A DNA stretch of 64,000 nt from a virus. Its lineage: Duplodnaviria > Caudoviricetes. The stretch is from positions 1 to 64,000 of the IMG/VR virus record IMGVR_UViG_3300042481_000164; one strand, given 5' to 3'. Below, one piece after another: positions 13,800 through 46,228 of this stretch. Under the pieces are notes generated by a model. It did not search any database and was not told the DNA's origin. It saw only the letters and a program-made list of their open reading frames with translations. Both the position numbers and the translations under genes were made by a program. Numbering within the stretch: the first letter of the stretch is position 1; each line of letters opens with the position of its first letter.

Positions 13800-13842
13800 A
13801 CATAAGAAGTTTATTTAGTAAATTAAAATTTAGTATATTATT
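13797..13842 (+). promoter_or_regulatory. conserved intergenic element (candidate late promoter/operator)
   Basis: TAAAC-N7-GTTTA...AGTAAA...AAAATTTAGTATATTA; a similar element occurs at 19173. Confidence 0.45.
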
Positions 13843-13856
13843 TATATACCCAAGTT

Positions 13857-16379: not shown

Positions 16380-16388
16380 CTTTGAATT

Positions 16389-19175: not shown

Positions 19176-19217
19176 ACTTATCATGTTTATAGTAAACATA
19201 AAAAATTTATAGATTTA
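19173..19217 (+). promoter_or_regulatory. conserved intergenic element (second copy)
   Basis: TAAAC-N7-GTTTA-T-AGTAAAC...AAAATTTATAGATTTA, similar to 13797-13842. Confidence 0.45.
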
Positions 19218-19235
19218 CAATAGAAAAAAAATATT

Positions 19236-22200: not shown

Positions 22201-22295
22201 AATATTTTCAACAATCAAACAATACAGAAGCAGTACAAAAAATGCAATCTGCTTTTGGTAAAACAATAAAAAATTCAGGATTTAAAATATTGTAA
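19236..22295 (+). CDS. virion cargo/ejection protein
   Basis: 1019 aa, Cys-free and helical; MATY...QPFQPDYNF start; directly precedes the giant genes. Confidence 0.55.
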   Translation: MATYLQGVTDYIPDFQPFQPDYNFYMNVLQTKQNQYDSNYKALNNLYGELYHQRVTRDDSNKMKDDYLKKVDFELKRVSALDLSLEQNVEQAQQVFKPLYENKHLMKDMALTKNYDLEKGKAMALQNSKDVKQREMYWDVGIKDMDYRIEEFKNISKDDVLTFSNITYTPNVNVYEKYKTLSKDLNIDITLPDKSGMYLVRQKNGDLIIPSLQKLFLSTYASDPAIQKKYTTEAYVRRKDDVKQRAAKYNNNELLAEQEFLKEKYIMLKDYVNQKTKDSEDAEEASTTKKAIVENDVQTGDVNPRQPAFLARINQAVEVDKIVYAHNAKLNDEINSSGSSLYEAKPVGNVDGLDLNNIELARQIVDSNYASYLAESDIISYAGILSERDKIVDYKVNQVGLEERRHMHNLQRDANNNNFALRRDQMKFNNDLLLAQAKQKSEKENMILEWNLDNGLAEVKDGQIVPVQPEGQEIEELEPGDTGFNTIVVPKDNRKLFLSGNEKQSTQYFDVWLNTIKNGINSGEIKKSDLAYLMGQPSSAADKIWDKYVNQADNKTSKNALIQKLLLSAKIFDLKKRMDVWSDKHSALSTATTYLSDGAKARYSLDKTKASYTLHMDVKKQNDNKIKNALYTSLSQADLSEKSKYSIVDAYMKNYRTGKLYHDEDFDDFVNDWLDKNEKKSGVTKVDWKSVDPRTAQYATPTKVKGQTSFAKLLNDAYDKITSNPNHKVGLLSYRNTEVTSQDGQATIGARPTSVAVTFGRKDDNLTMFNQFVSDLKSLNFTNDPDNYRVSTKGNVLEKDFEVSDPDKIRKMKSLMFDLQQLSKQKGQKDKPDVIKLVQHPVAMENPDLGAMSVKNIPLNMIEKYFKGDDKTIAEIQANGITFMAPEKSWNNSLFQSNKITPFEMSLNTGKSIQYVDPLYGHKLIVTRDKVTGTYSLTKQLNSVDESGNSVVESSSQIIRPFGNNIDAQIEKTVDEFANWSKTMEGNFKYFQQSNNTEAVQKMQSAFGKTIKNSGFKIL

Positions 22296-22297
22296 TA

Positions 22298-25200
22298 ATG
22301 GCTAAAAATAGATTCACTTCTTTTACACAATTTGAGGGTAACAATCTTTCAAATACTAGTAAGGTACCAGATATAAATGAACAAAAATATGGTGTGACTC
22401 CTAATGCACCTAAAGTTATTACTAAACCAACTTTTGTTGGACCAGACCAAGCTAAAAATTTATTAGCTGAATCAAAACTAAGAAGTAATGCTTTACTTGA
22501 TGCAAATGAATATGGTAAAACTTTTACTTTTGATAATAGTCCTACAAGTGCATCTTTTAAAGCAAGATATAAAGCTTATGGTCAAGATACATATAACAGA
22601 ATAGGTTTTGATCCTGATATCAATAATGAAGATATTTATAATAAAAATACTTCAACCTTTGATGATATGAAAAGATGGTTTAAACATTCAGCTGCACCAA
22701 TGGTGGGGCTGGGGTTTATGGCACCAATTCATTCCTACGGCAAGCTCTTAGGTTCTGGAGATGTAGGAGCAGACAGACAAGAAGCAAAAGATTATGAATA
22801 CTACAACTCTATAGGTTATTCATCTAGAGGAGGTATTGGTGGATTTGCTACTAACTTATTAAACTCTGTATCTTATTCAGCAGGTATCTTATTAGAGGGT
22901 GCAGTAGAAGGAGCTATGGTTAGTGGTGCTGTAGGAGCAGCAACTGGAGGTGAGTTAAATTTATTAGGTGGGGCACTTGGTGGTGTTAAAGCTTTAACAA
23001 AATTACCATCTGCATTAATTCAATCTACTAAGAATATTGGTAAAATAGCTCAGTCATTAAAGAATCTTAAAAACATTAGCAATGCAAAAAACTTTTGGCA
23101 AAGTGCTGGTGAGTTAGGAGTAAAAACTTTAGAAAAAGTTAACCCATTAGAAAATACATTTGATGCTGTTAAGAGTTTAAGTCAAGTTCAAGATATGTCA
23201 AAACTTGCAAAAACAGCTAGAACAGCTGGTGCTTTTTGGCATGATGTTATGAGTATGAACATGGCATTATCTGAAGGTAGACTTGAAGGTGGTTTTTCAG
23301 AACAAAATGTGTATAATAAATTATATAATGATTATTATGCTAAAAATGGTAAAGCTCCATCTGGAGAGTTACAAACTAATATGATGCTTCAAGCTAAAGA
23401 AGCTGGTTTTAAGAATACTCTTTACAACACAGGTTTAGTATTTTATTCAAATAAAATTGCATTCCCTTCAATCACAAGAGCAAAATTTTTAAAAGGGGCA
23501 CCTAAATTTAATTTTGGTAAAGTAGTTGGTGAAGTAGGTAAGGAATTTCAAATTATATTTAATCCTGCAGATGACATTGCAAAGGCTACATATACCAAAG
23601 AAGCAATAACTTTTAAGAATTCACTTAAAGCTTTAAAAAGCCCTAAACAATGGGGTAAATTAGGTTTGAATTATTTTACAGCAAACTTAGTAGAAGGTGT
23701 TCAAGAAATTGGTCAGGAAGCTTTAGCTGCTGCAACTGAGAAATATTATACTGATACTTTTAACAATCCTTCTGTAAGGGGTTATAAGTATGGTATGGGA
23801 GCTTTAATGGATGGTTTAGGTAAACAATTAAATACCCAAGGTGCTGAAACATTTGCTTCAGGTTTTTTAATGGGTGGTTTATTAGAAGGACCTAGTAAAA
23901 TGTTTAAGTTTGGTACTAAAAATTTTAGTAGAATTTTTAAAGATAAAGCTGTTTATGATGAGTATGTAAAACAAAGAGAAGTTCAAGCTGATGCTATTGT
24001 AAACTCTTTGAACAACATGCATAAAAATGCAAAATACTTTTTTGATCCAAGAATAAATAATTATTCAAATCAGATGTTGACTGCTAAAATGGTAGACAAT
24101 CCTGATGATGTTGAGACAAAACAATTAAAAGATGCTGAGTTTGCAACCTTTCAAAGTTCAGTAATTACTGCTTTAAGAACAGGTACTTTTGATACATTCA
24201 TTGATAATCTAGCAGAATATAAAAATACTACACCTGAAGAGTTAGAACAAGCTTGGTCATTAGAACCAGGACAAGGACAGAAAGCATTACAAAATATTGA
24301 TAAGGCTATCAATTCTGCAAAAATAACAGCAGAAAGATATAAAATTGGACAAAATAAATTTAAAGATTTTGTTGACCCAAAAAAATTTAAAGAAGATTCT
24401 CCAGAATACAATGCTGCTATAATCTATAACAAAGCTTATGAAGAATCTATTAGTAGTTTAGTTTTTTTACAAAGTGCATTTGATAATAATCTTGATAGAT
24501 TAGGTAAATTATATGGAGAATTAGATAAGTTAAAATCTATTTCTGGTAATGCTTTTTCAAATTTTAGTGTAATAACAGATCCTGTTAAGTTAAATTCTCA
24601 AATAAATTATTTAAAACAAGAGATTGAATCTGGTGTTACATCAACTATGCCAGAAGCTATAGCTGAAGTAAGACAGAAAAGAGAAGTATTAGCTGCTTTA
24701 AATAAATTTCAACAAGCTCAAGATAATAATACAGGTGAAAATTTACAAAAAATAAAAGATGTAGTAGCTGGAAAAGCTGAAGTAACACCTGAAATAAATG
24801 AATATTTTCAAGCTTTTGGAGAATTACTTGAAGCAATAGCCGGTTCTGAAGAGAAAAAAGTTGATTTAAGACAAGAGATTGATAAAATGGGTGGTCCTGA
24901 TGCTTTATTTGCATCATTACTTGACATTCATTTATTAAAAAATGATAGAATAAATACTGCAAAATATATAAACATTCTTGCTGACCCTGCAGGTTTTTAT
25001 GAAAGTGTGAATAAAAACTTTGAGTGGATGAAAAGAATGTATGATAATAGAAAAGAATATTACAAAGATATTGTAAATCAAGAGATTGCAAATGTTGAGA
25101 GAAATGAAATCTTAAACACATTAGCATCTGATGGTATTTTTGTTGACTTAGAAGAATTTGCAAAATTTATAGAAGATCCTGAAAACTATTTACCAGAGTA

Positions 25201-28200
25201 TTTTATTGATACTACTAAAGAAATGGTTATTAATAAGGATAGTATTCTTTATGAAGATTATGCTAAAATATTTTTGACAGCGGCTGTTTTAGCTCAAAGA
25301 AAACCTGCAGGTAATCCTGCTACTGAAAAACAAAAACTTGATGATGAGTTAACTGATCTAGCAAAAGATAAAAATAATGAGTTAGTTTCTGCTTTAGCAG
25401 ACTATGATCAAGCTTTTACTAATGAAGTAGGTATGTCTGTACAAGACGCTACCACACAAAATCAAGAGGCTTTAGAAAATAATACTGACTTAGAAGAACA
25501 ACAAAAGACAGCTACTGAAAAAATTACAAAGCTTCAGGACTTACTTGAAGTAATTGCTAAAGATCCGGTAGACACTAATGCTATAGTAGAACTTGCTGAA
25601 GAATTATTAACTCAGGAAGAACTTCTATTAACAGAAGATGATATAGATGTTGATACTATAAATGCTATTGCCAGCCGTAAATTTAAAAGACCTAAAGCTG
25701 GCTCTAAAGAAACTATTATTGATGATGCAGTTTCTGTAATATATGTTTTAACTGAAAAATCTCCTTTATTAGTAGCTCAAAAAATTGATGAACAAAAAGA
25801 AATACTTAACAAACAACAAAAATCTGTAATTGATATTGAGAATACTAAAAGTTACAAAGTATATCAAGAAAGAGTATCTCAAATAAATGAAAGATATGAT
25901 GCATTAGAAGCTCAGATACTTGACAAGTATAAAGAAAAAGGTGTAGATAAAAATACTGTAGATGCTTTTACTTCAGAAATGGGGTATGATAATTTTCCAC
26001 CAGACTTACAAGCACAACTTGATAAAGCATTTGATGATTACTTGATTAATGAAGAAATTGAGGCTGATCCAAAAAGTTTAATGGATACTAATTTTGATAA
26101 GTATCAAAACATGAGACGGAACTGGCTGGAAAATAAAAGTGGAGAAGGACAGGTAATAATTAATAAATACAATGAGCAAGTAAAAGCAGAAGGTGCAGCA
26201 AGAGCTGAGGCTTTGACTAAACCTCCTGTATTGACTTCTAGAATTTTTAAAAACCTAAAAATTGATGCTACTATTCCTATTGGAACTTTAAATGCTATCA
26301 TAGATAAACTTGAGTCTACTGTAAATACTAAAATTTTTAATAGTGGTACTAATGAAGTAAAACTATCAGAACAAGACATTAAAGAAATCACGGAGGATAT
26401 TGAGAAACTTAAAACTTTCCTACAGTACAAACAAGGGAACTTACAACCTGTTACACTACAAGAAAAAGTATTCAAAAGCTTTAAACAAAATGTAGCAGCT
26501 AAACAAGATGAGTTAGTAGATGTATTTGATGAAGATGGTAATAAGATAGGTAGAAAATTTGCAGATGATCCTGATTCTAAACTTACTACAAGAGTTACTT
26601 CAATTTCTGATAAGATTGCTACTGAAATTACTGGAGAAACGGCCTATGTATACTCTGATGAATACATAGATCAATTAAGTAATGCTTTCTTTTCTGAGTA
26701 TAATACTGCTCTTAAAAAAGGTGATACTGATGCATTCAATAAAGCTTGGTCTGTGTTTACAAATTTGGCTAGAACAAATAACAAACAGTTTAACAATCCT
26801 GAGAAGCAAGCTAAAATTAGAGAGTCTTTAGAGTTAAATACAACTGAAGAAAACTTTAAAAAGTTACTAAAAGCTGAAGCACATTCAAACAATGCTAAAG
26901 CTGGAACAAGACTGGATGCTACTGTAAGAAGATTCTTCACGGTTGATTTTGATAAATCTACAGAGGATACAACTGCTTGGATGGACTTAAAATATAGTGA
27001 CACTATAGATGTTGATGGTGTTGAAATGAAAATTTCAGATATCATGAGTGAGTCAGCTTTTGAAAATTTATTTGGTCTTAGAGGTATTGTTACTAGATTT
27101 AGATCTGATTTAGATGCTAAAGGCTTTTTCCCATTAACAAACAATGTAAAGCTATTTGATAAAACTTTATTGGAGAATGGTGTATCTGGTGAAACTGATA
27201 TAGTCTTAATCAATACTAAAGGTGAAATTACTATTGTAGATATTAAAACTGCTACCTCATGGAATGGTTTTAATAATCCTAATAGTTGGAAAAATGTAGC
27301 ATATAGAGCACAGCTTTCTATTTATAGAAACTTGTATCATAATATGACAGGTCAAATACCTAAGATTGCTTTATTTCCAATATTAGTAGCCCTTGGTAAA
27401 AATGGTTCTTCTTATATTGACGGTGTATCTGTAGGTGGAGAAAAAACTACAACTGCACCATTGGTTCCACTTGTTCCAAATAATGCTAAATTATTCAATA
27501 CACTAGAGCTTGAATACCTACCTGAAGTAGAAACTCAAGGAGGTATTACTTTAACTAAACCTGAAGAACCTGTTCAAACTGAAACTATTACAGAAACAGA
27601 ACCAGAAGCAGTAGAAAAACCATTTACACAACTAACTCCTTCTGACACAAATAAAGTATCACTTACAGACAATGTAGGTAAACAAGTAGTTTATAATGGT
27701 AAAGTGGGAACTTTAGTTTTACAAGATGATGGTTCTTATGCTGTAGAAATTGATTTAAGTGCTGAAGCAGAATTTAATAATGAACTATTATCCGGATTAA
27801 AAGCTGATTTGGCTTTTGAAAATGGGGAATTTGGTAATCCTGAAAGAGCTGCTGAAATCACAAAACAAATTGAGGCTATAGAAAAAAGTCAAACAGGAAA
27901 AGAAATATATCCTGTTACAGCTGACAGTAAAAATGTTACTGATGGTAATATTGAATTGACAAGTGCTGGTATATCTTTAATAACACCTATAGAAAATATA
28001 GGTCAAGTGTCTATGGTTAGCAATCAAATAATTGATGCTAGATTTGAAAATGAAGATGAATCTATTGCTATTGTAAATGGTGTTAGATACAATGTTGAAA
28101 GAAATGCTTTAGGTGAAATAACTAAACTTACTTATTATAAGAATGAAAAAAGAAGAAATGAAATTGATGACTTTATTTTAGAGCTTAATAAAATTATTAA

Positions 28201-29494
28201 GTCTGAAAGAAGCATAATGAGATCTTCTAAATCTCCAAATAAAAGTTTAAATAAAATTGCAAAAGCTAAAGATAAAATAAAGGATCTTGAACTTGAAAGA
28301 TCTAAATTATCTACAGAAGATGTGGTTATTGTATATGGTGATAATAATAATGATGTAATATTTGCATTAAACAGATTACCTAACAAATTCCAAAAAAATA
28401 AAACAAGCAAGACTGGAGCTGATACTCAAAAAGAGTTAAAACAAATAGCTGCTTTATCAGAGGCTTCTCCTAAAGTAGAAGAAGAAATAGCTCTAATAAT
28501 GAGTCAGAACTTTCCAGAAGAATTAAATACTTTATTTGCAAAAGGTATTTCTGAATTTAAAGGAAAAAGTAAAGAACTTGCAAAAATTAAAAATTGGATA
28601 AATGATACAATACAAAAATTAAGAGACTATAAACTTGGTGATGATACATTAGGTAAAGAATCAGTAAATAGAAAAATAAATGTATTGTCAGAATTACTAA
28701 ATAATTTAAATTTAATTAATTTAACTGCTACAAATAGAGTAGCTAAACAACAACCATATGAACAAGAACTCAACAAACTCTTTGGATCAGAAGCAGAAGT
28801 ACAATCCGGGACTGGTATACCTAATGTTCAAATCCCTACCGGAGAACAAACAGAGGGTGTTTCTGGACAAACAAGCGGAGGACAAACGCAAGAAATCTCA
28901 ATTGATGAACTCAAAAAAATAGTTACATCATCAGTAGAAGAACTTGAAGGTTTAGAGTCTGAAGCAACTGTAGTTGATAAGGCAGTAGAAGCTTTTGCAA
29001 AAATTAAAGATTTAGAATCTTTATATGCTAAAAAGCTTGAGTTAATTAAAAATATTAACAGCAATAAACTTAGTCAAGGTCAAATAAATACTGCTTATGA
29101 CACTAGATTAGCAGAGTTAGAAAAAAATGTTGACATTGCATCATTAAAACCAAATGATATTTTGCAAGATGTTACTAACTTTACAAATCAAGATTCTCCT
29201 GTACAAGTAGCAAAAGTTAACAAAAATTCTGTTATATTAAAGTATGGAGATGTTACTCAAGAAGTAACTGAAGAAGAGCTTGTAAATAACTTTGTTAAAC
29301 CTACTAATGAACCTACTATGGAAGAAGTTGTAAAACCTTCACAAGAAACTGTTGATGCTTCAGAACAAACTAAAACTGATGCTAAAATCTTTTTTGAAAA
29401 TAAAAAAACTGAAGCTTCTGACTATAAAGAAGCAACAGAATCAAATGAAGATGATTTATTTAAAAACCTAGAAAATAATTCAAAAACTTGTTAA
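22298..29494 (+). CDS. giant ejection protein 1 with N-terminal membrane-like Gly/Ala segment and internal PD-(D/E)xK nuclease domain
   Basis: 2398 aa; hydrophobic G/A-rich stretch near aa 180-230; GVSGETD-x-VDIKT...YRAQLSIY nuclease motifs; its only Cys is the last residue. Confidence 0.65.
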   Translation: MAKNRFTSFTQFEGNNLSNTSKVPDINEQKYGVTPNAPKVITKPTFVGPDQAKNLLAESKLRSNALLDANEYGKTFTFDNSPTSASFKARYKAYGQDTYNRIGFDPDINNEDIYNKNTSTFDDMKRWFKHSAAPMVGLGFMAPIHSYGKLLGSGDVGADRQEAKDYEYYNSIGYSSRGGIGGFATNLLNSVSYSAGILLEGAVEGAMVSGAVGAATGGELNLLGGALGGVKALTKLPSALIQSTKNIGKIAQSLKNLKNISNAKNFWQSAGELGVKTLEKVNPLENTFDAVKSLSQVQDMSKLAKTARTAGAFWHDVMSMNMALSEGRLEGGFSEQNVYNKLYNDYYAKNGKAPSGELQTNMMLQAKEAGFKNTLYNTGLVFYSNKIAFPSITRAKFLKGAPKFNFGKVVGEVGKEFQIIFNPADDIAKATYTKEAITFKNSLKALKSPKQWGKLGLNYFTANLVEGVQEIGQEALAAATEKYYTDTFNNPSVRGYKYGMGALMDGLGKQLNTQGAETFASGFLMGGLLEGPSKMFKFGTKNFSRIFKDKAVYDEYVKQREVQADAIVNSLNNMHKNAKYFFDPRINNYSNQMLTAKMVDNPDDVETKQLKDAEFATFQSSVITALRTGTFDTFIDNLAEYKNTTPEELEQAWSLEPGQGQKALQNIDKAINSAKITAERYKIGQNKFKDFVDPKKFKEDSPEYNAAIIYNKAYEESISSLVFLQSAFDNNLDRLGKLYGELDKLKSISGNAFSNFSVITDPVKLNSQINYLKQEIESGVTSTMPEAIAEVRQKREVLAALNKFQQAQDNNTGENLQKIKDVVAGKAEVTPEINEYFQAFGELLEAIAGSEEKKVDLRQEIDKMGGPDALFASLLDIHLLKNDRINTAKYINILADPAGFYESVNKNFEWMKRMYDNRKEYYKDIVNQEIANVERNEILNTLASDGIFVDLEEFAKFIEDPENYLPEYFIDTTKEMVINKDSILYEDYAKIFLTAAVLAQRKPAGNPATEKQKLDDELTDLAKDKNNELVSALADYDQAFTNEVGMSVQDATTQNQEALENNTDLEEQQKTATEKITKLQDLLEVIAKDPVDTNAIVELAEELLTQEELLLTEDDIDVDTINAIASRKFKRPKAGSKETIIDDAVSVIYVLTEKSPLLVAQKIDEQKEILNKQQKSVIDIENTKSYKVYQERVSQINERYDALEAQILDKYKEKGVDKNTVDAFTSEMGYDNFPPDLQAQLDKAFDDYLINEEIEADPKSLMDTNFDKYQNMRRNWLENKSGEGQVIINKYNEQVKAEGAARAEALTKPPVLTSRIFKNLKIDATIPIGTLNAIIDKLESTVNTKIFNSGTNEVKLSEQDIKEITEDIEKLKTFLQYKQGNLQPVTLQEKVFKSFKQNVAAKQDELVDVFDEDGNKIGRKFADDPDSKLTTRVTSISDKIATEITGETAYVYSDEYIDQLSNAFFSEYNTALKKGDTDAFNKAWSVFTNLARTNNKQFNNPEKQAKIRESLELNTTEENFKKLLKAEAHSNNAKAGTRLDATVRRFFTVDFDKSTEDTTAWMDLKYSDTIDVDGVEMKISDIMSESAFENLFGLRGIVTRFRSDLDAKGFFPLTNNVKLFDKTLLENGVSGETDIVLINTKGEITIVDIKTATSWNGFNNPNSWKNVAYRAQLSIYRNLYHNMTGQIPKIALFPILVALGKNGSSYIDGVSVGGEKTTTAPLVPLVPNNAKLFNTLELEYLPEVETQGGITLTKPEEPVQTETITETEPEAVEKPFTQLTPSDTNKVSLTDNVGKQVVYNGKVGTLVLQDDGSYAVEIDLSAEAEFNNELLSGLKADLAFENGEFGNPERAAEITKQIEAIEKSQTGKEIYPVTADSKNVTDGNIELTSAGISLITPIENIGQVSMVSNQIIDARFENEDESIAIVNGVRYNVERNALGEITKLTYYKNEKRRNEIDDFILELNKIIKSERSIMRSSKSPNKSLNKIAKAKDKIKDLELERSKLSTEDVVIVYGDNNNDVIFALNRLPNKFQKNKTSKTGADTQKELKQIAALSEASPKVEEEIALIMSQNFPEELNTLFAKGISEFKGKSKELAKIKNWINDTIQKLRDYKLGDDTLGKESVNRKINVLSELLNNLNLINLTATNRVAKQQPYEQELNKLFGSEAEVQSGTGIPNVQIPTGEQTEGVSGQTSGGQTQEISIDELKKIVTSSVEELEGLESEATVVDKAVEAFAKIKDLESLYAKKLELIKNINSNKLSQGQINTAYDTRLAELEKNVDIASLKPNDILQDVTNFTNQDSPVQVAKVNKNSVILKYGDVTQEVTEEELVNNFVKPTNEPTMEEVVKPSQETVDASEQTKTDAKIFFENKKTEASDYKEATESNEDDLFKNLENNSKTC
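28758..28922 (+). CDS. candidate nested 54-aa ORF in the +1 frame of giant protein 1
   Basis: ATG...TAG reads MNKNSTNSLDQKQKYNPGLVYLMFKSLPENKQRVFLDKQAEDKRKKSQLMNSKK. It has an A-rich leader, and the host frame shows atypical codons over the same span. Confidence 0.4.
   Translation: MNKNSTNSLDQKQKYNPGLVYLMFKSLPENKQRVFLDKQAEDKRKKSQLMNSKK
29287..29308 (+). promoter_or_regulatory. candidate internal promoter upstream of the RNAP gene
   Basis: TAACTTTGTTAAACCTACTAAT matches the intergenic site at 2821 (TATATTTGTTAAACTAACTAAT) at 18 of 22 positions. Confidence 0.4.
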
Positions 29495-29495
29495 T

Positions 29496-38400: not shown

Positions 38401-40292
38401 TTTTGTTAAAATCATTAGCAACTGAATTAAGTTTGAGTGATCAAGAAATAGAAAATATAACAGACATATTCTCAAGACTTCCTTTATTTGCATACTTGCA
38501 ATCAGGTATTAATAAGACTAAAGCTAACTTGGTTCCTTATGTAAGTACAAAACCTTTCTTGGATATTATGGATGATGCTGTAAAAGATTTCACAGGACTA
38601 TTAGCAGACTCTGGTAAAGCTGAAAGAGTATTACAAGATTTCTATGATAAATTTAATACTCAAAACAGTTATGATAACAAAGACAAAAATAGATTCAAAA
38701 ACTATTTTACAGATATTAACTTTGACAAAATAGAATCTAAAGCAGTTACTCCTAAAGTACAAACTCCAACTGAAGGTAAAAAGAAAGAACTTTTTACATT
38801 TGAAAAAGGAATGGAAAAAAAATCATTTAGAGGTAAACCATTAAGCTTTGTAGATAAAATCCCTACTGCTAAAGATACTGTTGTTGCAATGCGTAATAAT
38901 AGAACTACAGGCTTGATCACTATTGATGCAAAAGCAATGGCTCAAAAATTTATTGATAAAGCTTGGACTAAACCTGCTAAACAATTAGATGATAGTTATG
39001 CAAAACCTTTATCAGAAAATGAATTTAAATCTGCTAATGAATTTTTTACATTTGCATTAATACATGAAGTTAAACATGATACTATTTTTAAACAAGAAGG
39101 TGAAAATACCGGTGCTTATGAAGATAGGATTAATCAAGCTGCTCTTGAAGATTTAAGAAAAAACTATAATGCTCAAGTAGAAGCTGAAGCTAAAATAGAC
39201 TTTCAAGAAGAACCAACAAAAGGTTACACAGAAAGAACTAAAAAGAATGCATTAGCTGATGCTACAATTGATTTTGGTTTAAATCAAGAAGGGGAATCTT
39301 GGACTAAAAAAGCTGTAGATAATAACAAAAAGAAATATATTGGAATAAATACTAATAACCTTGCAGTTACACCTGAAATGGTTAGTAAAATAGTTAATGC
39401 TTTAAATAGTGTTAATGCTAAAACATTAAATATAGCTGGTATGGGTATTTATAATATGAAGCAATATACTCAAGAGCAAGTTGATGATTTTACTTATGAT
39501 TTATTAAACCAAGTATTAAACTCATCTGATCTTAAAACTAAAATACAAAGTATCAGAAGTGGTGGTCAAACAGGATTTGATGAAGCTGGTGCAAAAGCAA
39601 GTATGAAATTAGGATTACCAACAATAGTACTTGCACCAAATGGTTGGACATATAGAGATGTAAACAGTAAAGATATTTCAAATAAAGAAAAATTTATTGC
39701 AAGATTTGGACAACCACAAGCTGAGACTGAAGTAGAAACTAAAAACTTGACAACTACTAATGAACCTAATGTGTTTATATTTGATGATAGTAAAACTAAA
39801 ACTGCAGATTACTACAGACAATTAACTAGTGCTAATTCTACAGTAGGTTTTGTATATAATGCAAGTAAACAAGAAATAGAAAAAAATCTTACACTACCAG
39901 AGCAGTCACTTTTAAGATTTGTTTCACCTGATACAGCACTACCATTTATCACAAGTTTGGACACTAATTCTGATAACTTTAGTACTTTAGCATCTGAAAA
40001 TTATCAAAGTATAAAAAACTATTTTGATAGAAAAATTCAAGAGCTTAAAAATGCTAAGGACTCAGGATTCAAAATTGCACTTCCTATAGAAGGAATAGGT
40101 AATGTTAACAAAATGCCTGAAGAATTATTTGTATATTTAAGTAAGAGGTTATTTGAAGAATTAGGTTATCTAAATCCTGGTTCTACAATGTATCAAGACA
40201 TTAAAGAAATATTAAGTAATAAACAAGGTATATCAGATGATGAAATTCTAGCATCATTAGGTTTTGAATCTGATCCTTTTAACTGTGTATAA
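29496..40292 (+). CDS. giant virion-packaged RNA polymerase (crAss/phi14:2 gp66-type) with zincin domains and SLOG domain
   Basis: RIPVQG...AKSGGDFDIDKL (DFDID at ~36276-36290); DGQG motif; HEAWH (~31797) and HEVKH (~39063) zincin motifs; SGGQTGFD SLOG motif (~39558). Confidence 0.85.
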   Translation: MICSLNETQLSDLRKITYKKLSGLKPSESFDLEGFIKDIYNRIEKAAGEEKALQYAQIIPLTIHYVQGDDEINSILAKTDFNPTVIMQLRAEFNDIDNVKKYVTEFVRKKSKKELQGELEHENFQLDNIDVVDPEPSELEKLRKAKIEFPNVTTFQYGAKNDPSKPETQKEEDVVTEDKKVFEKVIKKIIKSFNEKTADQNNPIIDGTEVFLKMMPADQLEDKHKLADDKTEQAKSFKGVVSVVTDAEGNYLYFDEAGNITDESRGAVVYQYIRRPYLLEDDLNQKKPAFFTITKSRSSLGVRIFKNTLVAAAKVAERLGLPSNIVLQQQKETMNGVYNMRKDIIDNGNSYVTQITGGSFGIVSSTRSKRINKDLQDTVKLTRENIIESKIVSSKGKNTGFFQFFTKINTENFGELEIPINIQRGNFDQTLANKVADVITTKATNMGDTLSDSERIAYFELFLNNDKKKSKNNIFLKQAPGGPLTLTINDEVIQDEAIFTTETRDKIAEHLLKAIKYGTEKTGPANVTINNTAKTKQTYTDYEISGNTIKPFEADYIDFQLKYVKPQFTEEIAGAVAGFNPYLGYSIPDKFTEDPINFFDVATDSETLPAVRKKSTVEQNEVAKEAEKEKAEVVQKKRNSEKKETVDEIQQTFTHNWLNDLNVTVKGEQKTIISKDEADGFNRSKQLDNFLDKVFTTKEDKANAEAWWANSPLNKSSKWNKNSKFKHLGLISLNRITEVVNSDAFATFTGTGITLYEADGGTAVDLYHEAWHGFSQLFLTEEEKIKLYNDVKSYPKWANKSFFDIEEDIAEDFRDYARSKGKKAAPKGFLGNVFQRIYKFLENMFGKVSKKDLATRPRDIASVKELFDNLYQASEKPELLQNMQPSTDNMMFTQLNRSKAIVSVKDVVAKYEPFDSAESLKVVSYLDSMIPEIFNAVNEQKNTSSSPVRVLQTNGNRKHLYKVLENKIAERIEALKTDFAKKASEGLEINTQDLNQLPFLAKLLDNFGDITSSVEGKDQKGAIAFHMQNSRFKILANTFVELEEDPTDIEQSRIVRLDGGNIFSSREAASQETKTILSSIYKIDRNKTKVGVDDNGKPTLSVQYEIDPETGLYVLLDEKEMWSKVAKVLAGSFDKTEMYKRLSEGVMDNPEFLQLLSYLPNPEDADYKDKAEFDIETKFWQDLKKPRLSYVQLNLNITKSATDVISEARVQRTDFDRSKVLKDWEINFLTVAQSEFIVENEAGQRVLDLDKLVKYYKNNLKPSNVLEFLNALGIVMDTSNPTIASVVEDPNFMNKFAIGQIYDSLEQISKTYDKEKFKFLRNPLSYLKSSLPKTLDPGSKFDSSSRIKELANIQVRFSDKYSNFSAISPEGNRVWEHFLDNTFTRIMTSLNHAKSWQELTNPDADPNGLFRHMRYLAYDNNTYTRHSVLLKSLFNSLLDVNNPGGKKDNRLVIQNVAGTQLIDKKSNKSTGVSTASMDATSKYLQEIHTMLMNGVEEFMRHASKQMSQGIVLQKGIRTYDGKKSTNLYVDLEKFLPTSTDGERYAFNILAGYLSGEVNRIFKFSSDLKKYEQFTGYTRSVERKTGKVVMAGQALAAFEDVLSKETQEKIYKIVDSAVKNKETDFDFSDIYENNPTLTVEIKKDVAKYFGHITDELKNRLDQTKFIDPTLRARVDNKGVELTPDESDRTLLKAYAYNSWIHKFETAILGYGDFAQYNHSKEEFHKRNAGFGSGGLGFASDLKTRSFVNKMTKLFDKKAPRKPYDGTLTTAIIKEREIEKSVYYDEYYDALVKEYTKRFGDKAKAEELAETALKEYKGMKIGDGQGHISFESYRMLKNLEGNWLPEQEELYKKLANGEDVSTEDIVHYFPPYKLQYCGPMETTGLPLTSFHKFSLAPIVPGVAKKGTPLYNLHQKMMLNDIDYVLFESGSKVGHLGKGDEVYDKDGNILMNVPFTKNIVFTDFLKNQTEVNSEYKGKSIFSTQMRKLILDNLYENGAINSPNEEDVVSPLVKRYLNNVSDYTELVKLELLEEIGFDETSTGEYVPRDKESIGKLLSLVRNNLDREESYSDEMLNFIDALDSGQLLHDLSLHPEALKIEKLLLSLINKRVIKQKVKGEPLVQVSSAFYENNLTESPKFRNATDADKKKWVGSNLLPTYHKMADGKTAAMKVMIALQGDYANLLNLDYNGQTIETLDRLNQAIKDDEWLDANNGANRKAITLVGVRIPVQGLNSMEFMEVYEFLPAQAGNIIIPPAEIVAKSGGDFDIDKLTIFMTNIDQEGKLKSRLFNNTTELKSQLATIKGDKEKSITKVFKQQKAGVENDLMNDIKEILELPQNFGSLVTPNGTFLLKDIADDLATDVMEYNPFKNYMTAETREPKKNKKIISATRVLEPLYNLYKHESNIVGKKTLGLGAVENTMNVLLNSIGALMPKTYTNYKGISRDTSLGLRHNTREFNNEKRISLSNLYDVDNTNKIADVFSQAMNGWVDVEKDAWIFFIQGNYEVAPTLLYLIKAGVPVKEAIYFVSQPLVREYVDEQRLAKSTFGDVLGKTPENKALVKYQAASTIINKYFDANVVPAKGKSEERFRAATNLFNKFMADRKDKVFTEKEMRDLIRDSKRTPSEKMSDLSLTMFMHYLDIEDQIKGITQIKMNANPDTNIKSVISDIETSEGRLENLENNPELQPIISALMSDSVISSFFNNKLALSLAAPLFKLRYNSAIRKFIKGKDDAGDLLQAVISTFGEAGRDNYLNTFRNDLVTYIFQNTLVKTDIKKGYMSYDTKELPAKQMVSDKFGAFVKTNTDGSKTLFYNLENLEKEYLSEKWKNTSQKPNYYSSLGLHPLPANTFTIAKGQNSKAYARFVMEREYLRSVYPIAETGLDKANYEEFLANRALDNTFNVNHLFSDPKNAFAIRLYDIILTNPKLVNKFDILSKLQLDNNTENTMFNLELVDRDIDNIKANIYTKNLSDLANPVLLKSLATELSLSDQEIENITDIFSRLPLFAYLQSGINKTKANLVPYVSTKPFLDIMDDAVKDFTGLLADSGKAERVLQDFYDKFNTQNSYDNKDKNRFKNYFTDINFDKIESKAVTPKVQTPTEGKKKELFTFEKGMEKKSFRGKPLSFVDKIPTAKDTVVAMRNNRTTGLITIDAKAMAQKFIDKAWTKPAKQLDDSYAKPLSENEFKSANEFFTFALIHEVKHDTIFKQEGENTGAYEDRINQAALEDLRKNYNAQVEAEAKIDFQEEPTKGYTERTKKNALADATIDFGLNQEGESWTKKAVDNNKKKYIGINTNNLAVTPEMVSKIVNALNSVNAKTLNIAGMGIYNMKQYTQEQVDDFTYDLLNQVLNSSDLKTKIQSIRSGGQTGFDEAGAKASMKLGLPTIVLAPNGWTYRDVNSKDISNKEKFIARFGQPQAETEVETKNLTTTNEPNVFIFDDSKTKTADYYRQLTSANSTVGFVYNASKQEIEKNLTLPEQSLLRFVSPDTALPFITSLDTNSDNFSTLASENYQSIKNYFDRKIQELKNAKDSGFKIALPIEGIGNVNKMPEELFVYLSKRLFEELGYLNPGSTMYQDIKEILSNKQGISDDEILASLGFESDPFNCV

Positions 40293-40294
40293 AA

Positions 40295-43200
40295 ATGGTT
40301 TGTGAAGTTAAATTAAAGTCAATCAAGTTTTTAGAAGATGAAAAAGCTACTAATGATGTAAGAAAGATAATTGATATAGCAAAGTTTGATAAGCTCAACA
40401 GGAGTCTTACCAAACTTGCTGTTGATAAGTATGGTCTTGAGACTAATGGTGAAAATCTTTTTGAGAATAGAGAAATTAAAATCAAAGATGTAAGAACCTC
40501 TACATACAGAAGAGATACTTTTGTTACTATAAATAGAGCAGAGCCAAATGATCCTTTATTTGAGAAACTTCAAGAACTAAAAGAAAGGTATGATCAAAGA
40601 AATGAAATAGCTAAAAATGCTATTTTACCAGAAACTACTACACAAGCACAACCAAAATTCATTAGAGAAAAACAGGCTAATCCAGATTTTCCAGTTATTC
40701 CAATGGATTTAAATACTATTAATCAGCAGCAATCAAAAGTAGTTGCTGAAGCTATAGCATCTAAATTAGCTGCTAAAATGGGAGTAAACTATCATACGGT
40801 TACTTCTGAACAAGCTACACAAATGCTTAAAAACAATCCGGTACCATATAGAGGTGAGCCAGCTTTCTTTTATAATGGTGCAGTATTTATTGTTGGAGAC
40901 AATGTTAAACCAGGAATTCTCCTACATGAGTTTTCTCATCCATTACTTCAAGGTTTAAGAAAGACTAATGCAAAGTTGTTTAATAGCTTATTTGAACAAT
41001 TAGCAAAGACAGAGGAAGGTTTAGGTATAATTGATTATGTGTCTAGAGCATATCCAGAACTAGATGCTACTTCTGATTTATTCAAAGAAGAAGCATTAGC
41101 TTTTGCTTTACAATTAAAATCTTTAAATAAACTTGAGAAACAAATTGAGACAGAAGGTTTCCAGTCCTTTATAAGTAAGTTATTAGCTTCATTAAAACAG
41201 TTTTTACGTGATATATTTGGAAATGGTGTAAACTTGAAAAACCTAAATGAATCCACATCTCTTGATGAGTTATCAGAAATGCTACTTGATGATACTATGT
41301 TTGATTTTAGTGAAGTAAAGTTAACAGAGGATGATCTTGTTATGTATGTTAGAGACATTTTTGATGAAGCAGACAAACTTTCACAAAGTGTTAATGCTTC
41401 TACACTACAAAACATAGTTAATGAGGTTTATGCTAGTCATGTTGGTATTGTTAATCAGATTAAAGACTTTAAGGCTGATAAGGTAACCAAAGAAATGTTA
41501 CAAAGAACTTTGGATAAACAGGGAACAACAGAGTTTTTACCTGCTGTAAGAAAGATTCTTTCTGGATACCAAAACATAAACAATCTACAAGACTTGGTTA
41601 ATGAAGACTTAGAAGACTTAGACAGAAGTAAACAAATGGCCGGGGCTTTAATCAATAGTATTGATAGAATTAACTCATCCAGTGAGAATATTATCAAAGA
41701 ACTAAATAACATCTCCAAACAACCTAATTTAATCAATAATAGAAACACTATAGCTTTATTAGGTATATATAAAAATACATCTCAAGCTTGGTTAAATATT
41801 GTTGATGAAATCAATACAGCTTTAGATGAGTTAGACATTGACAAAAATAGTGAGTTCTATACATTAGTTACAGGTATTGTTAATAATGCAACAGTTATAA
41901 ACTCTAAGATTGCAGACATTTATAAAAGAGGTAATGTACAATTCTTTGTAGAAATTACAGGTTACATGAATGAGTTTGTAAACAAAGAATTAAAAGGTAA
42001 CCTTGGTATTGCATTAAAAAAAGCTTATCCTGAAGACCAGTTAGAAGCTGCGGTAGATGATTTGTATAATAAGATTGTTCAACAAAGATTGAGTAATGAG
42101 GACTTACAAAAAATGTATAGTAAAGGTGTACCAGCAAATATTCTTCAAGAATTTATTGACAAGTACAATAAATATATAGTTAGTAAAGACGATATAAAAG
42201 ATGCACTTACAGGACATGCTAAAGATGTAAGTTGGTTTAACAGATGGTTGGAATCTTATTCATCCAGTAATGATATTATAGTAGGGCCATTAGCAATGTT
42301 TATTCAAAATCAAAGAACTGAGGTAGAGACTAAAGTTTGGAGAGCTTCTCAAGATTTTAGAAGTAAACTTGCTGATTTATTACCTAAAGTAAATTTTAAT
42401 AAACTTAATCAGAATCAGATTTTAAATATGGTTTCTGGTAAAGACAAAATATTTTACTTTAACAAAAAAACTAAAGCTTATGAAGCCAAAGAAGTTTACA
42501 CATTTTTAAATGAGTTTGGAAATGGTTGGAGATTTGAGCTTGATAGACTAGAGTATGAGTATGAAGAAGCTAAAAAAACTGGTGATAAAGAAGCAATTGC
42601 TAAAGCTCTTGATGAATTAAGACAGTTTAATAAAGATTATATGTGGCAAGAATACACATTAGATTTTTATGAAAAAGATGATGTATTTAAAAATTCTGAA
42701 ATAGGGTCTTTAGCATATGCTGCAAGAAGATCCGCTCTTGATAATTACTTAAACTTGCAAAACAGTTTGCAAAAAGAGTATGAAAGATTTGAAAAATACA
42801 GTGAATTACAGGAAGCCTTTAGAAGTTACCAAAGATTATATTCTTTACAGAATGAAGATGGAACTGAGAAAGTTGATGATCCTGCAAAAGGTATTTATGA
42901 TAAATCTATTGCTGAGTTATTAATCAAACACAGACAAGAAACTAGTAAGTTCTATGAATGGGTTCCAATTACTAATTCATTAGATACTGCTTATAATGAG
43001 TTTATCACAGAGCTTCAGTCAAAAAATATTAAAAAAGGTACTAAAGAATATGACACTAAATTAAGAGAGTGGCAAAAACAAAACATTAGAGTTGTTTATT
43101 CTGAGAAATACTATGAGACAAGAACTAATTTATTTGAAAGACTTAAAGCAGTTCAAGATCAAATAAATTCACAATTAGGTACAACATACAATGTTTCTGA

Positions 43201-46200
43201 TGAGTATAAAAAAATACTTGACATGTTGTATATGTACAAAGATGATTTTGGTCAGCCTGATGCTACTCAATTAGGAGAAGATAAGCTTAGAAAAATCAAA
43301 GATATTCAACAAAATATTATTGATTTAAGACAAAAGTTTGATAAATACACAGGTTTAACAAGAGAAGATTCTCAAACTCTTTCTGAATTAATTTTAAAAT
43401 CTAGAGATGAGGAGTTAACTACAGAAGAAGCGGAAGAATTGGATAGGTTAATTTCTTCTAAGAAAAATGTAGATATTAATCTGATTGAAACTATGTCAGA
43501 GATATTAGAAGAATTATCAAGTATTTCTAGCAAGTATCCTACTGATTACTACATGGAAGCATTAGAAACACATATGAGTAAGTATGAAAACATACCAGCT
43601 TTTTCAGATGTAACTGTAGATGATTTTATTAATAAAGAGTTGTTTCAACAATTAATTGATCCAACAAGTAGCTTGTATGATGAAGAGTTAGCTAAATGGT
43701 TTGAATTAAACCATGTTGAAGTTATGGTTTTTGAGAATAAGGCATTGGTGAAAAAATACCAGAGAACCGCTGCTAATTCCTACAGCAAACCAACAAACCC
43801 TGAGCATTTTATTACTACTAAAATAAAAGACAATCAAACTGATGAAGTAATCTCTATTATAGGTGTACCTAATATAAGACACTCAAGAAGAGTTGTTAAA
43901 AATGAGTACAGAACAATACCAAGAGGAACAAACAAGAAAGATTACATTGGTAAGTATATAGATAATAAAGGACACTTTTTACCTAGAAGCTTTCAACCAG
44001 GTAGTAAGAACAGTGCTCTTAATGATAGATTTATTGATAAGAGATACCAAGCTTTAAAAGCTGACCCTAATTCAGCTGAGTTTCAGTTGATAGAAGCAAT
44101 GAAAAAGTTCCATTTGAGCAATCAGGAAGGTGCTTCTAATTATGGTAAATTATACTTAGATGTTCCAAGATATGGTATTGGAACCAGTGATAAATACCAA
44201 TTGCTTGCTAAAGGTGAATATGGTGAAAGATTTAAAGATATTAGAGGTAATGTCAATGAATGGTTAAAACAAAAATTTGGTAAGTCTGTACAAGATAACT
44301 TGAATGGATATAACTATGATCCTGAAAATAACCTTGTAAATACAGACCTTAAAGGAAATGAGATTTCTTATATTCCTGTGACAGGTATTTATAATCTTGA
44401 TGCAGAAAAAATAGATGCTGATGTATTTAACTCTTTGTTTAAATACACTATGTCTATTCAAACTCAAAGTGCTTTATTAAAATCATTACCATTAGTAGAA
44501 TCTATTTTAGATACTCTAGATGATCCAGCAAATCAACCAAAAAATTTAGATGCATTTTCTAAAGGTATTTTTGCTTTAAGAAAACAACAACAACATCCTA
44601 CAAGAAAAGGAGCTACTAATAATAGATCTGCTCAAGTAAGATCACTTGTTGAAAGAGAATACTATGGTAGACAAGTAACAGGTATAGAAGAAAATCATCC
44701 TGTTTTAAGTAAGTGGTTGAGTAATATAACCAGTATGTCTAGTAGAGCAGCTTTAGCTTTAAATATACCTTCAGATTTAAAAAACCAGTTATCAGGTTAT
44801 GTTCAAACTATTATTGAAGCTTCTGGAAACAGATATATTTCTGGTAGAGATTTGGCATTATCTGCATCATGGTCAACTAAAGCTATGTTAGAGTGGACTA
44901 CTAAAGGTATTTATGAAATAGGTCCTGGAGCAGTTTCTACTCAATTGATTCAAGTATTTGATCCAACATTTAAAGCTAATGATGAAAATGGTAGACCTGT
45001 GTACAGATCTTTATACAAAGACTTGGTAAATGGAGAATGGATGTATATGCACAGAAAGTTTGGTGAGATGGATGTAGCAATGAGATTGTTTGGTGCATTT
45101 TTACATGCTGAAAAAATTGAACAAACTTTTTCTGATGGTAAAAAAACTTTAATTAGATATAATGATGCTTGGGAAAAAGATGCTGATGGTATACTTAAAC
45201 TTAAAGAAGGTATTCATCCAGGCTGGAGTTATGAAGCAGTTTATCATACATATACAAAAGGTGAATCTTTAGAAAGTATTGCTAAACAGTATGGTGTATC
45301 TGTTGAAGAGCTTAAAGCAAAAAATAGAATTAAGGATGTAATTCAACTTGAAGATGGTCAAGAAATTATTATTGCTAAATCAGAATATTTCAAACAATTC
45401 AAGAATAAACTACAAGGTACATCAAGAGCACTGTTTGGGGTTTATGATGAATTTGGTCAACCAGAAGGTAATAAATTAATTTTATACCGTATGTTCTTTT
45501 TCATGAGAAAATGGTTCACACCAATGTTTGTGAATAGATTTGGAATGGATCTTTCTAAAGAAAATTTTGGAGGTTCAAGATATGATTGGGCATTAGGTAG
45601 AACTACAAAAGGTTACTATGTTGAAGCATTTCAAGCTCTTTATAAAATTATAAAATCTAAAGGTGCTGATTATCAGTTTATGACTGATGACCAAAAAGGT
45701 TCTTTAAAGAAAGTATCTTCTGAAGGTTTAGTAATGATTACTTCAGCTTTACTTGCTTCAATGTTATTTGGTTTTGATGATGATGATCCAGAAAAATGGA
45801 AAAAAATAAAAGCTAAATCAGGTGCTTTGTTTACAGATGAATTTAACACTTATGGTTTCCTATCTAATCATGCTTTATTATTGTTGTTAGGTGTACAAGC
45901 TGAGACAGGTGCTTTTATTCCACTTCCTTCAGTAGGAGGTATGAATCTTGGTGCTGATGATTATGCTAAATTACTAACTTCAACAACAACAGCTTTTGGA
46001 AATACCTTGTTAACTTACATTGAAATCTTAGGTGATGTATTAAACTTGATTACATTTAATGATGAAGCTGTAAGATATAAGAAAGATGTTGGTCCTTATT
46101 GGTGGCAACAAAAAGGTGAGTTAAAAACTTACAAAAGAATATTCAATATGTTTGGTTTAACTGGTGGTATTGGAGATCCTGAAACACCATTGAAAAACTT

Positions 46201-46228
46201 AGAAAAAGGTGCATCAAGAATTAGGTAA
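40295..46228 (+). CDS. giant ejection protein 3 with zincin motif, LysM domain and hydrophobic C-terminal segments
   Basis: LLHEFSHP...EEALA zincin; HTYTKGESLESIAKQYGVSVEELKAKNRI...LEDGQEIII LysM; its only Cys is residue 3. Confidence 0.7.
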   Translation: MVCEVKLKSIKFLEDEKATNDVRKIIDIAKFDKLNRSLTKLAVDKYGLETNGENLFENREIKIKDVRTSTYRRDTFVTINRAEPNDPLFEKLQELKERYDQRNEIAKNAILPETTTQAQPKFIREKQANPDFPVIPMDLNTINQQQSKVVAEAIASKLAAKMGVNYHTVTSEQATQMLKNNPVPYRGEPAFFYNGAVFIVGDNVKPGILLHEFSHPLLQGLRKTNAKLFNSLFEQLAKTEEGLGIIDYVSRAYPELDATSDLFKEEALAFALQLKSLNKLEKQIETEGFQSFISKLLASLKQFLRDIFGNGVNLKNLNESTSLDELSEMLLDDTMFDFSEVKLTEDDLVMYVRDIFDEADKLSQSVNASTLQNIVNEVYASHVGIVNQIKDFKADKVTKEMLQRTLDKQGTTEFLPAVRKILSGYQNINNLQDLVNEDLEDLDRSKQMAGALINSIDRINSSSENIIKELNNISKQPNLINNRNTIALLGIYKNTSQAWLNIVDEINTALDELDIDKNSEFYTLVTGIVNNATVINSKIADIYKRGNVQFFVEITGYMNEFVNKELKGNLGIALKKAYPEDQLEAAVDDLYNKIVQQRLSNEDLQKMYSKGVPANILQEFIDKYNKYIVSKDDIKDALTGHAKDVSWFNRWLESYSSSNDIIVGPLAMFIQNQRTEVETKVWRASQDFRSKLADLLPKVNFNKLNQNQILNMVSGKDKIFYFNKKTKAYEAKEVYTFLNEFGNGWRFELDRLEYEYEEAKKTGDKEAIAKALDELRQFNKDYMWQEYTLDFYEKDDVFKNSEIGSLAYAARRSALDNYLNLQNSLQKEYERFEKYSELQEAFRSYQRLYSLQNEDGTEKVDDPAKGIYDKSIAELLIKHRQETSKFYEWVPITNSLDTAYNEFITELQSKNIKKGTKEYDTKLREWQKQNIRVVYSEKYYETRTNLFERLKAVQDQINSQLGTTYNVSDEYKKILDMLYMYKDDFGQPDATQLGEDKLRKIKDIQQNIIDLRQKFDKYTGLTREDSQTLSELILKSRDEELTTEEAEELDRLISSKKNVDINLIETMSEILEELSSISSKYPTDYYMEALETHMSKYENIPAFSDVTVDDFINKELFQQLIDPTSSLYDEELAKWFELNHVEVMVFENKALVKKYQRTAANSYSKPTNPEHFITTKIKDNQTDEVISIIGVPNIRHSRRVVKNEYRTIPRGTNKKDYIGKYIDNKGHFLPRSFQPGSKNSALNDRFIDKRYQALKADPNSAEFQLIEAMKKFHLSNQEGASNYGKLYLDVPRYGIGTSDKYQLLAKGEYGERFKDIRGNVNEWLKQKFGKSVQDNLNGYNYDPENNLVNTDLKGNEISYIPVTGIYNLDAEKIDADVFNSLFKYTMSIQTQSALLKSLPLVESILDTLDDPANQPKNLDAFSKGIFALRKQQQHPTRKGATNNRSAQVRSLVEREYYGRQVTGIEENHPVLSKWLSNITSMSSRAALALNIPSDLKNQLSGYVQTIIEASGNRYISGRDLALSASWSTKAMLEWTTKGIYEIGPGAVSTQLIQVFDPTFKANDENGRPVYRSLYKDLVNGEWMYMHRKFGEMDVAMRLFGAFLHAEKIEQTFSDGKKTLIRYNDAWEKDADGILKLKEGIHPGWSYEAVYHTYTKGESLESIAKQYGVSVEELKAKNRIKDVIQLEDGQEIIIAKSEYFKQFKNKLQGTSRALFGVYDEFGQPEGNKLILYRMFFFMRKWFTPMFVNRFGMDLSKENFGGSRYDWALGRTTKGYYVEAFQALYKIIKSKGADYQFMTDDQKGSLKKVSSEGLVMITSALLASMLFGFDDDDPEKWKKIKAKSGALFTDEFNTYGFLSNHALLLLLGVQAETGAFIPLPSVGGMNLGADDYAKLLTSTTTAFGNTLLTYIEILGDVLNLITFNDEAVRYKKDVGPYWWQQKGELKTYKRIFNMFGLTGGIGDPETPLKNLEKGASRIR

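Follow-up and report, generated by a model that had tools for sequence, protein, structure and literature searches.

The window analysed here, i.e. the whole stretch of 64,000 nucleotides (nt) corresponding to positions 1 to 64,000 of the IMG/VR virus record IMGVR_UViG_3300042481_000164 (Duplodnaviria; Caudoviricetes), derives from a phage genome of 120,766 bases that is rated complete by CheckV, and DNA of this phage occurs in lake and other freshwater metagenomes. Three very large genes lie next to each other on the plus strand and encode P1, a cargo protein of 2398 amino acids (aa; 22298-29494), P2, a virion-type RNA polymerase (RNAP) of 3598 aa (29496-40292), and P3, an RNAP-associated cargo protein of 1977 aa (40295-46228). 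P1 is a homologue of phi14:2 gp67 and crAss001 gp47, P3 is a homologue of phi14:2 gp65 and crAss001 gp49, and the block is the P1-virion RNAP-P3 cargo block of a freshwater crAss-like phage. We report that cysteine (Cys) is nearly absent from these proteins apart from the ends that face each other across the two gene junctions. Together with comparative data from related phages, this makes it likely that P1, P2 and P3 are cargo of the virion and that single terminal Cys tie them covalently to one another at their ends, most probably by an intermolecular disulfide.

P1, P2 and P3 together have five Cys among 7973 residues, and four of the five are positioned no more than three residues from the junction-facing ends. 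Specifically, according to the translation the sole Cys of P1 is its last residue (2398; codon 29489-29491), the Cys of P2 are residues 3 (29502-29504), 1875 (35118-35120) and 3597 (40284-40286), and the sole Cys of P3 is residue 3 (40301-40303); there is no Cys at the outer ends of the block in the window, i.e. the N-terminus of P1 and the C-terminus of P3. These positions, including the Cys-free outer ends, match exactly those given in an earlier note made from the sequence alone, which had proposed that the three proteins are linked head to tail. At junction 1 (29489-29504, plus strand), the proposed link between the P1 C-terminus and the P2 N-terminus, the P1 Cys codon is followed by TAA, one nt and the ATG ATT TGT of P2, and junction 2 (40284-40303, plus strand), the proposed link between the P2 C-terminus and the P3 N-terminus, reads TGT GTA TAA, two nt and then ATG GTT TGT. 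The four junction-facing ends offer 12 positions at a distance of up to three residues, and at least four of the five Cys would fall there by chance with a probability of 2.6e-11; counting all six ends of P1, P2 and P3 raises this value to 1.3e-10. For comparison, Cys make up 1.5% of the other 27 window proteins (132 in 8894 aa), and only 7 occur in the 11826 aa (0.06%) of the seven consecutive large proteins encoded from 10599 to 46228. The internal P2 residue, Cys1875, is not conserved in homologues.

We collected 338 homologues (98 P1, 120 P2 and 120 P3) and, counted as sequences, the terminal Cys are retained in all three families, in line with the enrichment across orthologues that the earlier note had proposed as a check. 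The P2 homologues (42-98% identical, approximately 3250-4050 aa) have Cys3 in 116 of 120 cases and a Cys within the last six residues in all 120; in 99 of them there are exactly two terminal Cys and no other. Among the P1 homologues, where identity goes down to approximately 23%, 94 of 98 carry a Cys among their last six residues, in 80 there is none elsewhere, and an N-terminal Cys was found in none of the 98. A Cys among the first six residues, nearly always residue 3, is present in 107 of the 120 P3 homologues and is the sole Cys in 99; those lacking it look mostly like mis-called starts or truncations. Internal Cys across the homologues number 50 in 915,344 residues (≈0.005%). Moreover, in alignments of the C-terminal 250 aa of P2 and the N-terminal 350 aa of P3 from 42 phages, with a mean column identity of 15-17%, no column other than that of the Cys is invariant on either side.

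Within clades the terminal modules are conserved beyond the Cys itself, e.g. DPFKC together with MVCEVK, or "CPNKN..EW". The frequency of internal Cys is approximately 0.1% in gut crassviruses (L005, L006, L007, L088-L090 and L092-L094) and approximately 0.005% in the aquatic clade (P0001-P0338); the phi14:2 cargo proteins have no internal Cys and a fusion protein in cr271_1 has 15 Cys in total. The higher number in gut than in aquatic lineages fits a redox explanation but is confounded by phylogeny.

We surveyed 80 related IMG/VR loci with 10-kilobase flanks, considering every junction between consecutive large open reading frames (ORFs). Cys was present on both sides in 145 of 146 junctions, and the outer ends were free of Cys. 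In four loci (L068, L071, L074 and L076) a gene for a 307-aa protein lies between P2 and P3, and this protein has Cys3 as well as a Cys as its last residue; its end is homologous to the last approximately 130 residues of unsplit P2, which has no Cys at the split point. Locus L080 has four links consecutively, and in L081 there is an extra link of 739 aa, the first 47 residues of which match the P3 N-terminal module, and the P3 that follows it has a new Cys-bearing N-terminus. No Pfam domains were found in the extra link proteins of L068, L080 and L081. The N-terminal modules of the links following the RNAP are alike, M-x-C-[PIV]-N-K/R..[WY]-K/Q..L (15049-17265 and 17271-21449 in L081, 15514-16434 in L068 and 8617-11804 in L080), and the C-terminal modules of links in these three loci share ..L-K-x-C. 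Judging from these sequences, new breaks may arise by copying of an existing junction module.

Gene fusions give the complementary picture, as was anticipated in the earlier note, where Cys were expected to move with gene splits and fusions: the splits bring new pairs and the P1-P2 fusion points are bare. P1 and P2 are fused in cr108_1 (Steigviridae) and in cr118_1, cr109_1 and cr50_1 (Suoliviridae), and in these four there is no Cys at the fusion point, and the P2 C-terminal and P3 N-terminal Cys are both kept. In cr271_1 (Intestiviridae) P2 and P3 are instead fused and the Cys pair between P1 and P2 is kept. Breaks of other kinds also lack Cys. The RNAP gene of cr108_1 (L007, NC_055878) is interrupted inside the catalytic motif (..AKAGSD / YDIDKMY..; 16388-16706) by a group I intron (Rfam RF00028, 80 bits, E 7e-21), with the two exons annotated as separate proteins in the record, and there is no Cys at this break. 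The break in L072 is a plain frameshift, likewise without Cys, and the Rfam search found no intron there. One further locus, L002, was considered as a P1-P2 fusion that keeps a single junction Cys, but BLAST identified it as a P2 running off the 5' end of the locus, with the Cys being internal. As a side observation, the fused P1-RNAP gene of cr109_1 (L089, NC_055892; 6682-19668) contains 70 TAG codons in its reading frame but lacks in-frame TAA and TGA, which fits reassignment of TAG in late genes of this Suoliviridae phage.

The same arrangement is found in the cultured Cellulophaga phage phi14:2, where gp67 (1797 aa) has its sole Cys as the last residue, gp66 (2180 aa) has Cys only at residues 3 and 2179, and gp65 (1421 aa) has its sole Cys at residue 3. 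The gp67-gp66-gp65 proteins of phi14:2 and the gp47-gp50-gp49 proteins of crAss001 are homologous to the window proteins and are encoded in the same order downstream of the genes for muzzle and cargo, and the window shares its terminal Cys with phi14:2, with the crAss001-genus relative Kehishuvirus "tikkala" and with other gut crassviruses. The window proteins differ in being larger, with a SLOG domain in the 3598-aa RNAP and a LysM domain in P3. The cargo proteins of phi14:2 (Drobysheva et al.) and crAss001 (Bayfield et al., PMC10172136) are packaged in the virion and pass from it into the host; the phi14:2 RNAP gp66, for which a crystal structure is known, was inferred to enter the host together with the DNA, and gp65 bears a zincin region (Drobysheva et al.). 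The terminal Cys are mentioned neither by Drobysheva et al. nor by Bayfield et al. (PMC10172136). The crAss001 tail has many inter-subunit disulfides (PMC10172136), and hence crassvirus particles do hold disulfides. Moreover, some crassviruses encode fused P1-RNAP or RNAP-P3 polyproteins (Yutin 2018, as cited by Drobysheva et al.); these have the same domains in the same order as the window, with the parts joined by a peptide bond, whereas the window has separate genes with Cys pairs.

Two systems outside the crassviruses are informative for comparison. In the cyanopodophage A4 (Anabaena phage A-4L), cryo-electron microscopy (cryo-EM) showed Cys1715 of gp27 to be disulfide-bonded to Cys5 of gp26 within the virion (PNAS 2025, PMC12002296). 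According to the A-4L record, gp27 (1717 aa) and gp26 (1114 aa) are encoded by consecutive genes and these two Cys are the only ones in their respective proteins. This pair thus resembles those in the window: large packaged ejection proteins with a sole or near-sole Cys near the C-terminus of the upstream and near the N-terminus of the downstream protein. It differs in that A4 belongs to Saffermanviridae, has a single link and not a chain, and involves no RNAP, and the authors described the disulfide as stabilising a pentameric core and not as a general rule or a thread (PMC12002296). The N4-like phages (N4 gp50 and DEV gp71-gp73) have giant virion RNAPs or neighbouring ejection proteins with extreme suppression of Cys, and their passage through a periplasm where disulfides form has been given as the reason (PMC11445570). 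The window is similar with respect to suppression (0.06% against a background of 1.5%, with 0.005% internal Cys in the homologues), but in the N4/DEV type Cys is wholly absent and in the window type there is one Cys for each junction-facing end, where it is the most conserved residue.

Taken together, a covalent head-to-tail tether is well supported at the comparative level: the claim that the proteins are linked in gene order agrees with orthologues that keep the Cys, splits that add pairs and P1-P2 fusion points that are bare. We infer the disulfide chemistry in crassviruses, the time at which the bond forms, and any role it may have in stoichiometry, co-packaging, ejection order and release. 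In the proposed mechanism, the P1 C-terminus would be linked to the P2 N-terminus and the P2 C-terminus to the P3 N-terminus after translation, with the intermolecular disulfides forming in the assembled particle. Each link would replace a peptide bond, such that the three gene products would behave like the polyprotein of some crassviruses. With the Cys only a few residues from the chain ends, the linked product would be an unbranched thread able to pass the narrow portal and tail channel, and with the remaining Cys purged no wrong or branching disulfide could be made; Cys at the extreme ends and removal of all others is what such a thread would need in order to go through a narrow channel. 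Once inside the cell, the links would be cleaved by the reducing cytoplasm and the polymerase set free.

Of the terminal pairs that the earlier note had suggested for structure prediction, the last 250 aa of P2 were run together with the first 350 aa of P3, and the outcome favours an interaction only weakly. The score was 0.46 compared to 0.00 for the best of three controls, with a run agreement of at least 27% of contacts and a partner pLDDT (predicted local distance difference test) of at least 66, and no interface was reported. Of 80 solved complexes 58 reach the score mark applied, as do 2 of 110 mismatched pairs; those that reach it with scores of 0.60 or below are only 7 of the 80 solved complexes and both of the passing mismatches.

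A number of observations weigh against a covalent thread of P1, P2 and P3. Assembly occurs in the reducing cytoplasm, and the habitat of gut crassviruses is anoxic. No thioredoxin or glutaredoxin was detected in the 120,766-base phage genome, and a search for Erv1/ALR oxidases was silent in all 14 control genomes and is hence uninformative for the phage genome. All Cys counts given above are numbers of sequences and not of independent evolutionary events. The sole junction of 146 that lacks Cys is bare on both sides and is found in L009, where P1 is split at 2409 with an ATGA overlap; this split P1 has approximately 76 residues fewer than the window P1 and its 90%-identical relatives are unsplit, and the split may reflect either a deletion that happened recently or an error in the assembly. 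In the "tikkala" RNAP the C-terminal Cys is nine residues from the end, and in cr271_1 there is a Cys at residue 2545, near the roughly estimated P2-P3 fusion point, which may be due to chance as the protein has 15 Cys. Moreover, BLASTP revealed no homology between A4 gp26-gp29 and P1-P3 (best E 0.023), and the A4 precedent is therefore only an analogy. Finally, gp47, gp49 and gp50 were not resolved in the cryo-EM structure of crAss001 (PMC10172136).

Among other ways to account for the terminal Cys, the one that survives best is that the ends dock non-covalently and that each Cys pair either bridges a metal or engages in some thiol chemistry that yields no disulfide. This was allowed for in the earlier note, and both the clade-wise conservation of the terminal modules beyond Cys and the (weak) P2/P3 complex prediction, 0.46 against 0.00, would be compatible with it. 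We nevertheless regard it as unlikely. There are always two Cys per junction, 2 to 8 in total, with no fixed set of four ligands, and no other column is invariant, so there are no conserved His, Asp or Cys co-ligands; the approximately 200-fold purge of all other Cys would also be left unexplained, and the only solved case, A4, is a disulfide.

It is distinctly unlikely, in our view, that the link forms only after ejection, with free thiols in the particle being oxidised in the host periplasm (e.g. by the Dsb system) and thereby locking an assembly that spans the envelope. The peptidoglycan-related features of P3, LysM and HExxH, point in that direction, as does the ascription of Cys suppression in ejection proteins to a disulfide-forming periplasm (PMC11445570). 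On the other hand, the RNAP must reach the cytoplasm for early-gene transcription, the A4 bond is already present in the virion and crAss001 particles already hold many disulfides.

A different pairing, in which the middle proteins (P2 and the extra links of 300-760 aa) close on themselves by an intramolecular disulfide and the P1 C-terminal Cys pairs with the P3 N-terminal Cys, fits the Cys counts equally well, with two terminal Cys per middle protein and one per outer protein. We consider this pairing very unlikely, since the four phages with fused P1-P2 retain only the P2 C-terminal and P3 N-terminal Cys, which must therefore pair with each other. In A4 the partners have one Cys each and the bond is intermolecular, and the L081 insert keeps a P3-type N-terminal module adjoining the P2 C-terminus in gene order; a closed loop would, we infer, also need to pass the channel doubled over. 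The fused lineages, A4 and the L081 insert thus favour pairing across each junction in gene order, as in the head-to-tail tether.

Finally, the Cys codons could lack a function at the protein level and be a by-product of the junction DNA (start/stop overlap or translational coupling), a relic of polyprotein cleavage or due to chance, and in some relatives the C-terminal TGT does overlap the next ATG, e.g. ATGTTAA. This is extremely improbable: in Kehishuvirus "tikkala", DAC15 and cr126_1, P1 is on the opposite strand, facing away from the RNAP start, yet ends in Cys, which excludes a nucleotide-level artefact; the junction spacing varies from an 11-nt overlap (-11) to a gap of +30 nt and both Cys codons occur, TGC in approximately one of six cases; the absence of Cys at the P1-P2 point of fused polyproteins shows that it is not a cleavage signal; and the chance for the window alone is approximately 3e-11. 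Two further candidates were rejected. Protein trans-splicing by a split intein would call for Hint-fold halves on either side of the break, an N-intein of approximately 100 aa with Cys first and a C-intein with HN at its end and Cys next; no Pfam domain was found at the termini, and as Cys ends P1 and is already the third residue of P2, such halves could not be accommodated. In bacterial lipoproteins a signal peptide with a lipobox puts the lipidated Cys at approximately residue 15-25, whereas the Cys here is residue 3, preceded by M-I or M-V and with a polar sequence after it (e.g. MICSLNETQ).

Full-text literature searches, with subscription journals outside their coverage, found no description of this terminal Cys pattern for crassviruses. 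The suggestion in the earlier note that the linkage had not been described before therefore holds as far as crassviruses are concerned but not in general, as one such disulfide, that between A4 gp27 and gp26, was seen by cryo-EM in 2025; that link was reported without generalisation. More tentatively, we consider it a real possibility, though one that falls somewhat short of probable, that giant injected proteins throughout Crassvirales, and as an independent case in at least one cyanophage, are split into genes at portable "junction modules" and rejoined after translation by terminal disulfides. The phage would then inject a single unbranched, reduction-cleavable thread of more than 8000 residues with its RNAP as a part, and arrival in the reducing cytoplasm would trigger release and activation of the parts.

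Podophages pass proteins amounting to megadaltons, a polymerase of 2000-3600 residues among them, in order through a channel that is only a few nanometres wide, and how they do so is to our knowledge an open question. It is of particular weight for crassviruses, which are the most abundant human gut phages. If true, a conserved end-to-end tether would be a simple physical answer: one thread with a fixed 1:1:1 content and built-in redox release. It would also account for the purge of Cys from the cargo proteins, for the encoding as a single polyprotein in some lineages, and for splits and insertions in the block without loss of function.

With respect to gene identities, the RNAP label of P2 is borne out by a DFDID catalytic motif of the crAss-type RNAPs (36276-36290, plus strand; residues 2261-2265) and by a match of residues ≈1820-2280 to phi14:2 gp66 (g066, "Catalytic RNA polymerase subunit", E 4e-13) and to many "putative RNA polymerase" genes (tblastn). 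The variable C-terminal part of P2 has a cpYpsA SLOG domain (39198-39443, plus strand; residues 3235-3316; PF12694, 29.5 bits with a cut-off of 26.2). In the corresponding part of the P2 homologues P0003-P0094, precomputed Pfam matches include an AAA_33/zeta-toxin-like kinase, a 2OG-Fe(II) oxygenase (PF13532) and PF25176, and these add-on domains look like interchangeable effectors that would be injected. P3 shares with the zincin region of phi14:2 gp65 an HExxH motif (HEFSH at residue 211), with the consensus HEFxHP kept across the 42-sequence alignment, and has a LysM domain at residues 1654-1693 (Pfam). A megablast search with the RNAP region against 50,697 phage records gave no match, and PDB sequence searches with P1, P2 and P3 resulted only in matches at the level of LysM and SLOG.

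Upstream of the cargo block, and on the same strand as all of its genes, are genes for a crassvirus tail ring protein 1 (4107-5162, plus strand; Pfam CrAss_Ring_1, 29 bits) and a muzzle protein (5164-10599, plus strand; Pfam crAss_MUZ, 82.7 bits), followed by large Cys-poor ORFs; the presence of CrAss_Ring_1 and crAss_MUZ places P1-P2-P3 in the canonical crassvirus tail-to-cargo gene order. The Cys-poor ORFs encode four large proteins (1066, 840, 928 and 1019 aa; 10599-22295, plus strand) with two Cys in all, neither of them terminal, and these are presumed to be cargo outside the chain. Neither PHROGs nor Pfam gave a family for P1 or for these four proteins. Both Cys are in the otherwise Cys-free 928-aa protein (16389-19175), at residues 872 and 885. 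Similar close pairs are present in two other crassviruses, in L004 g069 (Cys369 and Cys378) and in L092 1138-3366 (Cys224 and Cys232); overall the paired Cys are 8-13 residues apart, and in the upstream cargo protein such a pair may close a short disulfide loop within the chain. The Cys-poor block is preceded, a few genes away, by a 547-aa protein (532-2175) that has 24 Cys (4.4%) and a weak match to the SprB repeat, and is probably an external, disulfide-rich tail or fibre component.

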